This document shows positions 40,401-46,400 of a stretch of DNA of 64,000 nt, piece after piece. Each line of letters begins with the position of its first letter. Within the stretch, counting starts at the first letter, position 1. Source of the stretch: Escherichia coli (lineage in GTDB: Bacteria > Pseudomonadota > Gammaproteobacteria > Enterobacterales > Enterobacteriaceae); NCBI RefSeq assembly GCF_036507355.1, contig NZ_AP027877.1. One strand, 5' to 3'. The position numbers are program-made.

Positions 40401-43400
40401 ATCATCCAGTTTGATTACATTATAGCCACCATAGAAGGGGCCAAAAAACGAAACCTTCAATGCTGCAGTTTTAGTATCTCCAGTAAAGTATGCTTTACCT
40501 TCGCTCTCGCTCCATTTATTTTTCGTTGGATCGTATCCACGGTTAAGTACACGAATCCCTCCGTCGTTCCGTTTTCCATAAGTAGCGCTGACCTGTTCCA
40601 GATCACGTTCGAACCGGTTCTCGAGGCGAGCTATTTCATACCATTTTCCGAGGTAGCGGTTGGCGTCAAAATTTGTAATCGGCTGCACACCTTTAGGTGG
40701 TGTCGGGGCCTTACATGCTATAAGAGTGAAAGAGAGTGCAATGCCAGTCAACACAGGCCATAACTTCATAATAAATCCTGTACTTTTGATAGTTGAGAGT
40801 AAGTATGAAAGATAGATGATTACGACCGATCACTTAAAGAACTTTCATACTATATTAGGAATAGTCCATAACAGAAAAATTGTCAGTGATGACGCCAGAA
40901 AGGCAATTTATTCCGTGCACTACACAGTTTATGTGTTAATGAATTAGTCAAGGGGGAGAATATGATAAAAAAACCTGTGATTGGAATCAGCGGTTGTTTG
41001 GCCGGTTCTGCTGTTCGTTTTGATGGTGGTCACAAAAGAGCTGACTTTTTAATGGACAAATTAGTGGAATGGGTAACATTCAGACCAGTATGTCCGGAAA
41101 TGGCTATAGGGCTGCCAGTTCCGCGTCCTGCTCTACGTCTTGTGCGCTCGACGCAAGGAAATATACGGATGTGTTTCAGCCACGACCAGAATGAGGATGT
41201 GACAGAGAGAATGACAGAGTTTAGTCGTTCTTATATGGACAAATTAAAGGATGTATCGGGGTTTGTGGTTTGTGCTAAATCTCCCAGCTGTGGCATGGAG
41301 CGCGTGCGTGTCTATGATGAAAATGGTAATCGAGGTCGTAAAGATGGAGTGGGACTATTTACGAGTACTTTGATGGAAAAGTTTTCCTGGCTACCGGTTG
41401 AAGAGGATGGGCGATTACATGATCCAGTGCTTCGTGAGAATTTTGTTGAAAGAGTTTTTGCTTTGCATGAGCTCAATCACCTTTACAAGGAGAAATTATC
41501 AAGAAGAGAGTTATTAGCTTTTCATAGTCGTTATAAGCTTCAGTTGTTGGCGCATAGTCAGGCAGGCTATAAAGATATGGGACCATTTGTGGCTGCAATA
41601 CACGAGTGGGCGGACCTTGAATCATACTTTGAGGTGTATCGTGATAAGCTGATGGCGATTCTCAGAAAACCTGCATCACGTAAAAATCACACGAATGTGC
41701 TGATGCATATACAGGGGTATTTTAGTAACTACTTAAGTACACGCCAGCGTAAAGAGTTGAGCGAGGTTATACTTAACTATCGTTCTGGCACATTACCTCT
41801 TCTTGCGCCGTTGACTCTGCTGAAGCATTATCTGGGTGAGTATCCTAATGATTACTTGCTTACACAGAATTACTTCGATCCCTATCCGGACGAACTGGCT
41901 CTAAGACTGATGGTAAATTAATTGTATGCGATATCATCCAAAAGGATGAGTTCCTGCATGCAGGATATTTACAATCGTAAAAACTACACTATGATACCCA
42001 GAGTGTCAGTTTGTATAAAAACTCTGTTTACGCTGAAGAAACAATTGAGATGCAACTTAAAGTTGGTAAACATGCCAGTCAAAATATATAATATTATGAT
42101 TCCACGCAGCTATATATAATATAACAGATTGGTTTAATAATTTGTCTTTGTGAGTTAAATACATAATTTTATACTTGTGATGCAATGAAATTTTCCTTAT
42201 TGTTGAACTGGCGAATATTGATTTTCCACCTATACTTACCTGGTGTAACCCCAATGATATCAGGTGGATAATATGCCATACATATGTTCTATCATTTTGG
42301 TGTTGAACTCGTTTGATGTCCGAATTGGTAAAGAAGATATTTTGTTTAAAAAAGGAAGTGCTGTTCTCATTGATTACAATTTAAAAGATTTTTTTTCATC
42401 AAATATAGATCATGTAATGATCGTAGATGTTGAAGAGAAAACAGTTAATGATTTCTTTAAAAGCAACACACTCTCACCTTTTTCTGTAAGAAGGTTTTAT
42501 CCGGCATACTTGATGGTGGAATGTGAAGATTTTTCATTGTTAAAGAACTTGATTGCATGCTTGAATTGTGATGGCAGAACTGTGGATTTTGTTAGAAATC
42601 AAATATCACTTGCATGTCTTGCTATCTTATCTTCAGAGAAAATAGTGCAAAGTTTTTTATTTGGATGTCTTAATAGTTTAGGAAGTAAAGTTAAGGCTAT
42701 TATTCACACGGATATATCTGCAGCATGGAGACTTTGTGATATATCTTCAAGACTGTATCTGAGTGAAAGTCTGTTAAAAAGAAAATTAAAGCACGAAGGC
42801 TTATCATTTAGTAAGTTAATTCTTGAAGAGCGAATGGTGATGGCGGAAAGGTTATTAAGCTACAATTTATATTCTGTTGGAAAAGTTGCTGAGATATGCG
42901 GTTATGAAAACACGTCATATTTTGTGAGTGTTTTCAGAAGATATTTTGGTGTTCCTCCCCATCAATATTCATCAAGATTTTTTTTAGAAAAAGACATGAT
43001 GTAACATGATGCGTTTTAATGATTTTGTAATTTTCGTATTTGATAATTGTATGATGCTTTCAGCTACGCCAGAATAATCGCTGGCGTTTTTCTTTTTGAA
43101 TAGATGTTCAAGCCTTACGCTAATGTAACTTCTATACCTTTCCTCTTCGTTCCGAACCGTGTACACCATCCGTTATTTGCGGAGGTGAGGCTATGAAATC
43201 TATGGATAAGTTAACAACGGGCATTGCCTACGGCACCTCCGCAGGCAGTGCTGGCTACTGGTTTTTACAGTTGCTCGATAAAGTCACGCCCTCACAGTGG
43301 GCAGCAATAGGTGTGCTGGGTAGCCTGGTATTTGGCCTGCTGACGTACCTGACAAACCTTTATTTCAAGATTAAAGAAGATAAGCGCAAGGCTGCGAGAG

Positions 43401-46400
43401 GTGAATAATGCCTCCATCATTACGAAAAGCCGTTGCTGCTGCTATTGGTGGCGGAGCAATTGCTATAGCATCAGTGTTAATCACTGGCCCAAGTGGTAAC
43501 GATGGTCTGGAAGGTGTCAGCTACATACCATACAAAGATATTGTTGGTGTATGGACTGTATGTCACGGGCATACAGGAAAAGACATCATGCTCGGTAAAA
43601 CGTATACCAAAGCAGAATGCAAAGCCCTCCTGAATAAAGACCTTGCCACGGTCGCCAGACAAATTAACCCGTACATAAAAGTTGATATACCGGAAACAAC
43701 GCGCGGCGCTCTTTACTTGTTCGTTTACAACGTGGGCGCTGGCAATTTCAGAACATCGACGCTTCTTCGCAAAATAAACCAGGGCGATATCAAAGGCGCA
43801 TGTGATCAGCTACGTCGCTGGACATATGCTGGCGGTAAGCAATGGAAAGGGCTGATGACTCGCCGTGAGATTGAGCGTGAAGTCTGTTTGTGGGGGCAAC
43901 AATGAGTAGAGTAACCGCGATTATCTCCGCTCTGGTTATCAGCATCATCGTCTGCCTGTCATGGGCTGTTAATCATTACCGTGATAACGCCATGACCTAC
44001 AAAGAACAGCGCGACAAAGCCACATCCATCATCGCTGACATGCAGAAGCGTCAACATGATGTAGCAGAACTCGACGCCAGATACACAAAGGAGCTTGCTG
44101 ATGCTAACGCGACTATCGAAAGTCTTCGTGCTGATGTTTCTGCTGGTCGTAAGTGGCTGCACGTCAAAGCAGTCTGTCCGGACAAGCATAAAACCACCGC
44201 CGCCTCCGGCGTGGATGATGCTTCCAGCCCCAGACTTACTGACACCGCTCAACGGGATTATTTCGTTCTCAGAGAGCGCATCGAAACCATAACTAACCAA
44301 TTGAATGGCCTGCAAGAATATGTGAGATCACAGTGTTCATATTAGAAAAGTCTTATCATAAGATTTTTGTATATGGATGCATTATGTCTCAATACGCTCA
44401 CGTTGCTTTAATCGCTTATCATTTGGTGGCTGATAGCTCAATGACTCCTCGTGATGCATGGGATGCAGCTATCGCAGAGGTTACAGAAAGCGAATCGTCA
44501 AGAAAGAAGATATGCCCAAGGGCAACATTTCTCGCCCTGGCGGATAGCGGTTACCTGAAGAATGTAAAACCACTGCATGGGGAGAAAAAGGGCGGTAAGT
44601 TGTACCAAAGGGCAATTGAAGTTGCGAATCTGATTCTTGATTTACCCGGAATCAGTAAAGCTGAATTGGTTGATAAAACTGGTTACAAAGACAGGCAAGG
44701 GTCTTATGACCTGATTCTCGCTCTGTATCATCATGAGCAACTCCAGCGATCGGAATAATTATCCCAGCATCAGTGTCAAAAATAGGCAGTGATACGCTAT
44801 TTTCCTGAAAATACTTTACTAACATTTTATGAGAATTATCCTAGTAATGTGTTTATTTAAAAGGAGTTTGGGTTTATGAAAATTCTCTGGGTCATCAGTC
44901 TTTTGTGTAGTGCTATTGGATTTATTGAAGGAATCCTCGGGGTTTTCGGTGCTCAGAGTGCTCCACAACAGGCTGCAGGTGCAGCAATGGGAGTAGCATG
45001 GGCAGTTATTCCATATTGTATTTGTCGTGCTATCCAACAATTGCGCCCTCGAGAAGTCATTATTAAAAAGGAAGAATGACCAGATCTTATCCGGTGTTTT
45101 TTCTGTCTAAGCCTCGCGTCGCGGGGCTTTTTATTGGAGCCAGCATGCCACCACGAACACCAAAAGCCTGCCGTGTTCGCGGCTGCCGCCATACCACAAC
45201 TGACCCGTCAGGCTATTGCGAAAGCCACAAAAGTGAAGGCTGGAAGCAATACAAGCCGGGCCAGTCCAGACACCAGCGCGGTTATGGTTCGAAATGGGAT
45301 GTTATCCGTGAACGTGTGCTCAAGCGTGACAAAGGACTGTGTCAGTTATGTCTGCGTGGTGGTGTGGTACGTGAGGCGAAAACCGTTGACCACATCATCC
45401 CTAAAGCGCATGGCGGCACTGATGCCGACAGCAATCTGCAGAGCCTGTGCTGGCCGTGTCATAAGGCGAAGACGGCCCGTGAACGGTTGAAGTAAGAACC
45501 AGTTCCCACTGCCAGAGGGGAGGGGCGGGTCAAATCCCTGTGACCTGACGTCTTCCGGACTGCCCGCCCCATCGTTTTTTTATACCCGCGAAAAATGAAA
45601 TTTAACCAGGAGTGCCGCATATGGCTGGAACGGCGGGGCGTTCCGGGCGTCGCCCCAAGCCAACGGCGCGCAAGGCGCTGGCCGGAAACCCCGGCAAGCG
45701 AGCCCTGAATAAAGATGAACCTGTTTTTACGCCCATCAAAGGTGTTGAGCCACCGGAGTGGTTCGCTGAAGAAGATCTCCCTCTCGCCACGATCATGTGG
45801 CAACTGACAACCAAAGAACTCTGCGGTCAGGGCCTGCTGTGCGTGACTGACCTGGCGGTACTTGAGCGGTGGTGTGTGGCCTATGAGTTCTGGCGACGTG
45901 CCGTGAAAAATATTGCCAGACAGGGCAACACCATCACCGGTGCAATGGGCGGTATGGTCAAAAATCCTGAGCTGACCGCCAAAAAAGAACAGGAGTCCGA
46001 GATGAGCAGTACGGGGGCAATGCTCGGACTCGACCCCAGCAGCCGCCAGCGTCTGATTGGCCTGGCGGGGCAGAAGAAAGCCACTAACCCGTTTCTGAAA
46101 ATTATCGAATCATGAGCCGGAAATCTTACCCCAACGTAAATGCTGCCAATCAGTATGCCCGGGATGTCGTTCGCGGAAAGATTGTGGCCTGCCAGTTTGT
46201 GATTCAGGCCTGCCAGCGCCATCTTGATGACCTGATGGCGGAAAAAAGTAAGTCGTTTCGTTACCGCTTCGACAAGGACCTGGCTGAACGGGCCGCCAAA
46301 TTTATTCAGCTGTTGCCGCATACCAAGGGTGAGTGGGCATTCAAACGGATGCCCATCACGCTGGAGCCGTGGCAGCTCTTTGTGATCTGCTGTGCGTTTG

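Follow-up and report, generated by a model that had tools for sequence, protein, structure and literature searches.

A probable intact late-lysis operon of the phage 21/DLP12 type in a defective argW prophage of Escherichia coli

Described lysis modules and the cassette in the window

A canonical lambdoid lysis module is that of phage lambda (S105/S107-R-Rz-Rz1), in which S is a canonical holin with three TMDs that forms micron-scale holes, R is a cytoplasmic transglycosylase that lacks a SAR domain, and the late antiterminator Q belongs to a family (PF03589) different from that of the Q protein discussed here. In contrast to lambda S, class II pinholins have two TMDs, of which the first is weakly hydrophobic (SAR-like) and can leave the membrane; the channels made by S21-type pinholins are small and depolarizing and free SAR endolysins but not cytoplasmic ones. 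The endolysin of phage 21, R21, is such a SAR endolysin, with structures available (PDB 3HDE and 3HDF). The embedded Rz/Rz1 spanin architecture has been established for both lambda and phage 21 (PMC6139136). A homologous module in the DLP12 prophage of E. coli K-12 (essD-rrrD/ybcS-rzpD/rzoD) is transcribed and, as a plasmid clone, produces a lytic phenotype; Q, RpoE, and Hha are reported to control it (PMC7918800).

The window analyzed here, a 64,000-nucleotide stretch of an E. coli contig (NZ_AP027877.1), carries a four-gene lysis set of this phage 21/DLP12 type, a standard, well-studied, and already known system. The first-pass annotation had placed a complete pinholin/SAR-endolysin/nested spanin cassette at positions 43193 to 44345, and all four open reading frames were found there, with matches to Pfam and to PHROGs lysis families (E values down to 1e-69); judged by these E values, the family assignment of the four genes is far beyond chance. 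No NCBIfam model naming S, Rz, Rz1, or Q was found, and an Rfam scan of positions 39500 to 45300 returned no RNA family. The cassette and its upstream region comprise the following features.

39712-40089, plus strand: Q-family late antiterminator, presumed activator of the late transcript (PF06530, 2.5e-51)
40090-40225, plus strand: presumed late promoter/Q-utilization region (from position and phage identity; promoter inferred)
40245-43004, no single strand: moron block between Q and S (Pfam; same block in intact prophages and 12 isolated phages)
40245-40769, minus strand: lipocalin gene of the moron block (Pfam)
40962-41921, plus strand: YbgA-like 2-thiouracil-desulfurase/DUF1722 gene of the moron block (Pfam)
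42264/42273-43004, plus strand: AraC-family regulator gene of the moron block (Pfam; GC content, 31.5%)
43066-43097, plus strand: intrinsic terminator hairpin with T-run, ~95 bp upstream of S (terminator scan and fold)
43193-43408, plus strand: S, class II (S21/EssD-type) pinholin, 71 aa (PF04971, 2.2e-35)
43408-43905, plus strand: R, SAR endolysin (GH24 lysozyme), 165 aa (PF00959, 3.6e-44)
43902-44345, plus strand: Rz, i-spanin with N-terminal TMD, 147 aa (PF03245, 2.2e-39; phrog_13, 1.8e-69)
44101-44292, plus strand: Rz1, o-spanin lipoprotein, 63 aa, in the +1 frame and wholly inside Rz (PF06085, 3.7e-15; phrog_3198, 8.4e-26)

Taken as a whole, positions 43193 to 44345 very probably represent a genuine lambdoid late-lysis operon of the phage 21/DLP12 type with its structure intact. 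S and R overlap as TAATG and R and Rz as ATGA, a pattern seen in lambdoid phages. Parts of a 3.6-kb query consisting of the cassette and its flanks were matched in 5115 of 5426 complete genomes, and few phage modules in E. coli are as common as this cassette. Its significance is accordingly limited to little more than correct annotation: the pinholin/SAR-endolysin/embedded-spanin pathway is a textbook system, and the S and R proteins found here show 98 to 99% identity to EssD and RrrD of strain K-12.

The DLP12 module shares with the window cassette its gene order and overlaps, almost the entire S (70/71) and R (164/165; PDB 4ZPU for RrrD) sequences, an upstream nin region (ybcN-ninE-ybcO-rusA-ylcG-Q) with 93% DNA identity, and a location downstream of a PF06530-type Q gene in a defective lambdoid prophage. 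The two differ in the spanins (Rz, 97/154; Rz1, 35/63), those of the window being an SfI-type allele that is 7 residues shorter, as well as in the C terminus of Q and the Q-proximal promoter region, in the cargo between Q and S (lipocalin, YbgA, and AraC genes in the window versus nmpC in DLP12), in the gene that follows Rz (DUF6979 versus borD), in the S104L substitution of the window R, and in the integration site, which is argW and not the DLP12 site. The Shigella serotype-converting phage SfI has the same S-R-Rz(+Rz1)-DUF6979-HNH order, 93.8% DNA identity over the cassette, an Rz that matches in 146 of 147 positions, and an identical Rz1, but carries tRNA genes between Q and S and no moron block. 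An argW prophage of E. coli Yu5 shows 99.3% identity over 3.6 kb and encodes identical S (71/71) and Rz (147/147) proteins, whereas that of E. coli LSC52 encodes a mosaic Rz with an RzpD-like N-terminal half. Unlike the window element, SfI, Yu5, and LSC52 are complete phages or prophages, and all of them have Ser104 in R. The likeness to lambda lies in the operon logic, an embedded +1-frame Rz1, and the conserved Rz cysteines and, presumably, in dual-start regulation of the holin and Q-dependent late transcription.

Holin, endolysin, and spanins

The S protein matches the PF04971 model ("Bacteriophage P21 holin S") over positions 1 to 63 of 64 with a score of 120.9 bits (cutoff, 26) and falls into the PHROGs holin families phrog_9876/phrog_20. 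It was compared with the phage 21 holin through this Pfam model and with the SfI S protein as a stand-in; the SfI holin, which we take to match the S21 sequence, differs from S at 9 of 71 positions (62/71 identical). Hydropathy and composition distinguish a weakly hydrophobic TMD1 (53% Gly/Ala/Ser/Thr; mean KD, 0.69) from a hydrophobic TMD2 (mean KD, 1.50), a composition that fits the SAR-like first TMD of class II pinholins. The MKSMDK dual start of S21-type pinholins, claimed in the first-pass annotation, could be read directly from the N terminus, with Lys-Ser between Met1 and Met4; S shares this MKSM dual start, like the PF04971 family, with the phage 21 holin, and GGAGGTGAGG is the Shine-Dalgarno site upstream of both starts. 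In the Met1-Lys2-x-Met4 motif, whose role has been described previously, the antiholin carries an additional N-terminal positive charge (PMC9636201). By this motif, initiation at Met1 (position 43193) would yield a 71-aa antiholin and initiation at Met4 (position 43202) a 68-aa holin. Around the two starts, the predicted RNA fold was no better than that of shuffled sequence (z, -0.36).

The R protein is identical to phage 21 R21 (chains of PDB 3HDE and 3HDF) in 162 of 165 residues, the exceptions being M98T, S104L, and I159V; residues 1 to 97, which include the whole SAR helix, are the same as in 3HDE. Residues ~8 to 27, located directly after Arg6-Lys7, are 65% Gly/Ala/Ser/Thr, which, together with the near-identity to RrrD and R21, bears out the Gly/Ala-rich N-terminal SAR helix noted at first reading. 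The catalytic motif E35-X8-D44-X5-T50 is present (lysozyme motif E-X8-D-X5-T, as defined in PMC9239132). Among 120 close relatives, E35 is retained in 118 and D44 and T50 in all 120; among 108 distant ones, the counts for E35, D44, and T50 are 105, 101, and 104. From the identity to R21, membrane release and activation of R, upon depolarization or by a pinholin, may be expected.

By homology to the experimentally characterized proteins of phage 21 and lambda, lysis would proceed as follows. Synthesis of S from two starts would produce the 71-aa antiholin, with its additional Lys2, and the 68-aa pinholin; the latter would build up in the inner membrane until, at a programmed time, it opens small channels through which the proton-motive force collapses. 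R would be exported via Sec and kept inactive, tethered to the membrane by its SAR helix, until depolarization frees it to refold and cut the peptidoglycan, after which Rz, in the inner membrane, and Rz1, a lipoprotein of the outer membrane, would disrupt the outer membrane. By this homology alone, the cassette may be lethal.

The start of Rz is the ATG at position 43902, which overlaps the R stop codon; the GTG that an ORF-finding tool lists at position 43890 does not serve as the start codon. The protein has a TMD at residues ~5 to 23 (mean KD, 2.45), and its periplasmic Cys92 and Cys145 align with C99 and C152 of lambda Rz. As claimed initially, Rz1 is fully embedded in Rz and has both a lipobox and a polyproline stretch: its signal peptide ends in V-S-G-C20, with Thr at position +2 and KPPPPPAW after the lipobox, and the mature protein contains 9 Pro among 44 residues. 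It has no second Cys and hence none equivalent to C29 of lambda Rz1. In lambda, either Rz C152 or Rz1 C29 is sufficient for the intermolecular disulfide (PMC6139136), and the window Rz provides the counterpart of C152. Rz1 starts at 0.45 and ends at 0.88 of the Rz length (L), close to the starts at 0.4 to 0.5 L and ends at 0.9 to 1 L in ~70% of embedded spanins (PMC6139136).

Rz1 has not been annotated in the RefSeq and phage records of Yu5, LSC52, SfI, and IdasGreatGrand, which would suit the view that it is a chance open frame and that Rz is the only gene. This view is exceedingly improbable in light of the PF06085 and phrog_3198 matches, the lipobox with its Cys, a well-spaced AAGGAG 7 nt upstream of the start, and the architecture established for lambda and phage 21. 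In addition, the frame is open not only in Yu5 and SfI but, in diverged form, also in LSC52 and K-12, even where Rz is just 63% identical, and the exact protein is listed at NCBI under the name "Rz1 family lipoprotein." The routine absence of Rz1 from related RefSeq and phage records is documented here.

Upstream region and decay of the argW prophage

The element that carries the cassette is located at the argW tRNA gene and derives from a lambdoid myovirus-type prophage. The first-pass annotation considered it cryptic, and comparison with a full-length prophage that is likewise integrated at argW substantiates this: the whole early/immunity/replication arm is absent, and two internal deletions, of 4.2 kb (capsid to sheath) and 7.4 kb (tail), have removed structural genes. 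Because it has lost this arm and the majority of its head and tail genes, the remnant has no virion production and no obvious induction circuit; pR, N, and cI are missing, a point against expression of Q.

The Q gene is intact, and its product is identical to K-12 QuuD in 106 of 127 positions. Cassette transcription would start from a late promoter just downstream of Q. The location of this promoter is inferred from its position and from the identity to a viable phage: positions 40081 to 40260 are 100% identical to those of IdasGreatGrand, and the whole Q-to-S block is 99.4% identical to that of an isolated phage. A consensus promoter scan returned 18 promoter-like sites versus 17.0 expected and did not detect the late promoter. 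Q-dependent expression is plausible, given that a viable phage matches Q and its immediate downstream sequence with 100% identity. An intrinsic terminator hairpin with a T-run, 100 nt after Q (positions 40188 to 40211; -14.9 kcal/mol; z, -3.65), is presumed to be a tR' analogue. The second hairpin (positions 43066 to 43097), in a spacer 98.9% identical to that of IdasGreatGrand, would block nonantiterminated read-through into the lysis genes. Antitermination by Q would be needed for transcription to pass both terminators and the 3-kb moron block. The ybgA-like and AraC-family genes of this block were considered as a chromosomal junction that severs the cassette from Q, a possibility that was rejected, since intact prophages and isolated phages carry these genes in the same Q-to-S interval, which marks them as prophage cargo.

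The claim of intact frames holds for a region far larger than the cassette: positions 38039 to 50138 can be aligned gap-free with the Yu5 prophage, with 156 mismatches in 12,100 bp. Intact frames do not speak for selection here, because the whole retained 12.1-kb block is gap-free relative to the intact prophage, and the adjacent terminase, portal, and protease genes, now useless, are as intact as the lysis genes. The same remnant was found in no complete RefSeq E. coli genome and is therefore seen as a recent, strain-specific decay product; most simply, its frames are intact because it is young, not because they have been specially preserved.

These observations bear on the proposal, made for K-12 DLP12, that such cassettes are domesticated host modules expressed at a low level from host promoters and retained by selection for roles in peptidoglycan turnover, vesicle production, or biofilm formation. 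Domestication would be compatible with an intact late-lysis operon, the cassette has outlived three large deletions of the element, and the near-identical DLP12 module is reported to undergo transcription, to modulate OMV production, and to be under the control of RpoE and Hha (PMC7918800). Nevertheless, it is quite unlikely for this locus, given that intactness needs no selection in a gap-free block that includes useless genes, that terminators lie upstream of the cassette, that the promoter signal is not above background, and that the remnant is recent and strain specific. What the locus does provide is a lysis cassette placed within a recently decayed argW prophage, where intact frames do not attest to selection.

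The S104L substitution in the endolysin

The Leu104 codon of R is TTG (positions 43717 to 43719). Position 104 is occupied by Ser in all 120 close cluster representatives and in 86 of 108 distant ones, as well as in two distant lysozymes of solved structure (9KBS and 6ET6) and in the endolysins RrrD, R21, and that of IdasGreatGrand, in addition to the three noted above; a single distant representative, a genuine homologue, has Leu. Given this conservation, L104 could reduce the muralytic activity of R; the substitution falls within the conserved A-L-x-S-F-x-Y-N-x-G helix. Carried further, this would mean that the cassette, although in frame, has weakened or lost its function, S104L destabilizing or inactivating the endolysin so that the pinholin depolarizes the membrane without lysis. 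We regard such an outcome as unlikely: position 104 lies outside the catalytic triad, Leu occurs in the distant homologue, and 17 examined contigs, in at least 4 differing prophage contexts, encode the exact L104 protein, a distribution that suggests an allele in circulation and not a lesion private to the remnant. For the same reason, a degenerative mutation confined to this remnant was rejected as the straightforward reading. The coding sequences on these contigs differ from that of the window by 0 to 12 synonymous changes; the carriers came from an exact-protein look-up, which by design leaves only synonymous differences, so that these do not amount to a dN/dS test.

That Leu104 makes the RrrD/R21 endolysin a naturally attenuated allele circulating among E. 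coli prophages is very unlikely. If it were true, leaky expression would be cheaper, which would allow lysis cassettes to persist in defective prophages; alternatively, such cassettes could be co-opted for cell wall turnover or vesiculation. S104L is a single testable point substitution in a structurally characterized enzyme.

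Genes and products of the lysis cassette

The lysis cassette of the defective argW prophage consists of four genes, which the ORF list and the raw sequence both place exactly where the first-pass annotation had put them.

Genes of the lysis cassette
43193-43408, S, pinholin, 71 aa, N terminus MKSMDK
43408-43905, R, signal-anchor-release (SAR) endolysin, 165 aa
43902-44345, Rz, i-spanin, 147 aa
44101-44292, Rz1, o-spanin, 63 aa, +1 frame, entirely within Rz

The S stop codon and the R start codon have one base in common (TAATG), the R stop codon overlaps the Rz start codon (ATGA), and an AAGGAG motif lies 7 nt upstream of the Rz1 ATG. 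The longer version of Rz suggested by the ORF tool, starting from GTG at 43890, was rejected, as this codon is internal to R and is not preceded by a ribosome-binding site. The four products match the Pfam families P21 holin S (2.2e-35), Phage_lysozyme (3.6e-44), Rz lysis protein (2.2e-39), and Rz1 lipoprotein precursor (3.7e-15), respectively, all far over the curated cut-offs, and all four are assigned to lysis families in PHROGs.

The claim of an S21-type holin with an MKSMDK start is borne out by both the sequence and the Pfam match. The first transmembrane segment of the holin is weakly hydrophobic and 53% Gly/Ala/Ser/Thr, and the second one is hydrophobic. Similarly, the proposed Gly/Ala-rich SAR helix of the endolysin corresponds to residues 8 to 27 (65% Gly/Ala/Ser/Thr), directly after Arg6-Lys7, and is followed by the lysozyme triad E35-X8-D44-X5-T50 (lysozyme motif and SAR criteria as defined in PMC9239132). 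Rz has a strongly hydrophobic N-terminal transmembrane segment. The signal peptide of Rz1 ends in the lipobox V-S-G-Cys20, followed by Thr-Ser and the polyproline stretch KPPPPPAW, as noted in the first-pass annotation. Hydropathy and composition agree with the membrane topologies proposed for these proteins. Relative to the length of Rz, Rz1 extends from 0.45 to 0.88, which is near the typical position of embedded o-spanins (from 0.4-0.5 to 0.9-1; PMC6139136).

The observation is therefore confirmed and its interpretation supported: all testable sequence-level defining features of the phage 21/DLP12 pinholin-SAR endolysin-spanin pathway (PMC9636201, PMC6139136, PMC9239132) were found in the cassette. 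Judging from these features, its membership and mechanism are those of this pathway, with pinhole formation, SAR release, membrane fusion, and expression all being predicted. The cassette represents biology that is already known.

Relatives of the cassette and the Leu104 allele

The lysis module is very common: when the cassette was used together with its flanks as a 3.6-kb query, part of this query matched 5115 of the 5426 complete E. coli genomes, and homologs of S occur in 438 phage records, Stx phages among them. The holin is identical in 70 of 71 residues to EssD of the K-12 prophage DLP12, and the endolysin is identical in 164 of 165 residues to K-12 RrrD (PDB 4ZPU) and in 162 of 165 to R21, the phage 21 endolysin (crystal structures 3HDE and 3HDF). 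The spanins, in contrast, represent a different allele from those of DLP12 (97/154 identity of Rz with RzpD and 35/63 of Rz1 with RzoD). Both the holin and Rz are identical to those of the intact argW prophage of E. coli Yu5, and Rz differs in a single residue (146/147) from that of the viable Shigella phage SfI, in which the same Rz1 ORF is present. The mature Rz1 lacks the counterpart of lambda Rz1 C29, whereas Cys92 and Cys145 of Rz align with lambda Rz C99 and C152 and are both kept; according to published genetics, either Rz C152 or Rz1 C29 alone suffices (PMC6139136).

Rz1 is unannotated in four RefSeq/GenBank relatives (L001, 13903-14346; L003, 4741-5184; L013, 14863-15327; and L014, 7204-7641); in the three that were examined (L001, L003, and L013), the +1 ORF with its lipobox is open. 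The third of these, E. coli LSC52, encodes an Rz (L013 14863-15327) that is a mosaic relative to 43902-44345 of the window, with a RzpD/lambda-like N-terminal half and a C-terminal half that matches the window allele exactly. LSC52 Rz1 consequently has a different signal peptide (MRKLKMMLCVMMLPLVVVGC) but an identical mature part; the recombination joint falls within the overlapping genes.

Residue 104 of the endolysin is Leu (TTG, 43717-43719), but Ser in K-12 RrrD, R21, Yu5, LSC52, SfI, and the isolated Escherichia phage IdasGreatGrand. The S104L substitution could attenuate the enzyme by lowering its stability or activity, given that Ser104 is found in all 120 representatives of the nearest 90%-identity clusters, in 86 of 108 diverse ones (~38-60% identity; Asp in 11, Leu in 1), and in two distantly related solved lysozymes. 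Such attenuation is unlikely, however: the identical L104 protein was read in 17 contigs representing at least four different prophage contexts, which makes L104 an allele in circulation and not a lesion private to this remnant. The DNA of these carriers differs from the window by 0 to 12 synonymous changes, with zero non-synonymous differences by construction, as the carriers were retrieved by exact protein.

Genes and signals flanking the cassette

Features between Q and S
39712-40089, Q antiterminator (PF06530), 106/127 identity with K-12 QuuD
40188-40211, strong terminator hairpin (z -3.65)
40245-43004, moron block: lipocalin (-), YbgA-like 2-thiouracil desulfurase/DUF1722 protein, and AraC-family regulator
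43066-43087, second terminator, ~95 bp upstream of S

The genes immediately upstream of S were considered as chromosomal, a possibility that was rejected in favor of prophage cargo. The Q-lipocalin-YbgA-AraC-S order recurs in the intact prophages of Yu5 and LSC52 and, with the three-gene block conserved, in 12 lambdoid phages that have been isolated; in one of these, IdasGreatGrand, the identity of the Q-to-S block is 99.4%. The same phage shares 100% identity over the 180 bp downstream of Q, which contain the first terminator, and 98.9% over the spacer between the second terminator and S. The gene for the AraC-family regulator is very AT-rich (31.5% GC).

Q and the terminators form the layout expected of a Q-dependent late transcript. 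A consensus scan detected no late promoter, and we infer one for the cassette. The near-identical DLP12 module is reported to be transcribed, to be lytic once cloned, and to be controlled by Q, RpoE, and Hha (PMC7918800).

Downstream of Rz, a DUF6979 gene (44384-44758) is followed by a 67-aa hydrophobic ORF (44876-45079; phrog_12304). The prophages of Yu5 and LSC52 carry this pair downstream of their cassettes as well, whereas DLP12 and lambda carry bor at this position and the SfI annotation has only the gene at the DUF6979 position.

State of the prophage remnant

The element is located between emrY and tRNA-Arg(CCT) at 55780-55854; EvgS, EvgA, EmrK, and EmrY were confirmed, as was the tRNA.

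Features of the remnant ends
35213-38038, left boundary, IS3-family element and 145-aa ORF in place of the early arm
36425-37578 (-), IS3-family element (orfA, 37294-37578; orfB, 36425-37237)
37599-38036, 145-aa ORF without a Pfam match
53196-54320 (-), Acyl_transf_3 family acyltransferase, adjoining the integrase
54461-55654 (-), IntS-type integrase at argW, near the tRNA

The combination of an acyltransferase and an IntS-type integrase at argW resembles the layout of O-antigen-modifying prophages (Sf6 oac, KplE1/CPS-53). On the K-12 map, we would expect dsdCXA between emrY and the prophage site; the ORF list of the window has no ORF of fitting size there.

Alignment with the full-length LSC52 prophage at the same site revealed three losses, so the label "cryptic element" was correct. 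First, everything to the left of ybcN is gone, including the recombination, immunity, and replication genes. Second, compared with the intact prophages of Yu5 and LSC52, 4.2 kb have been deleted (junction at 50135-50138), which has created an in-frame fusion ORF (49923-50582) that joins the first ~72 codons of an HK97-type major capsid gene to a tail sheath C-terminal domain. Third, a 7.4-kb deletion from a tail-assembly gene to ymfQ has removed the tape measure and baseplate genes; in the alignment, the sequences on either side of it overlap by 13 bp (51102-51114), which suggests microhomology-mediated loss. The same remnant was not found in complete RefSeq E. coli genomes.

The retained 12.1-kb block (38039-50138) aligns with Yu5 with zero gaps, in agreement with the claim that all lysis frames are intact. 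The terminase, portal, and protease genes, now useless, are likewise intact. Recent decay, rather than selective retention, is the best explanation of why the lysis frames have stayed open.

Outside the element, a pair of ORFs (111 and 277 aa) with a low GC content of 33% is located between mlaA and fadL (58093-59373, -); LSC52 has a single hypothetical gene of 415 aa there, so the pair may represent a gene that has been split or a variant of it.
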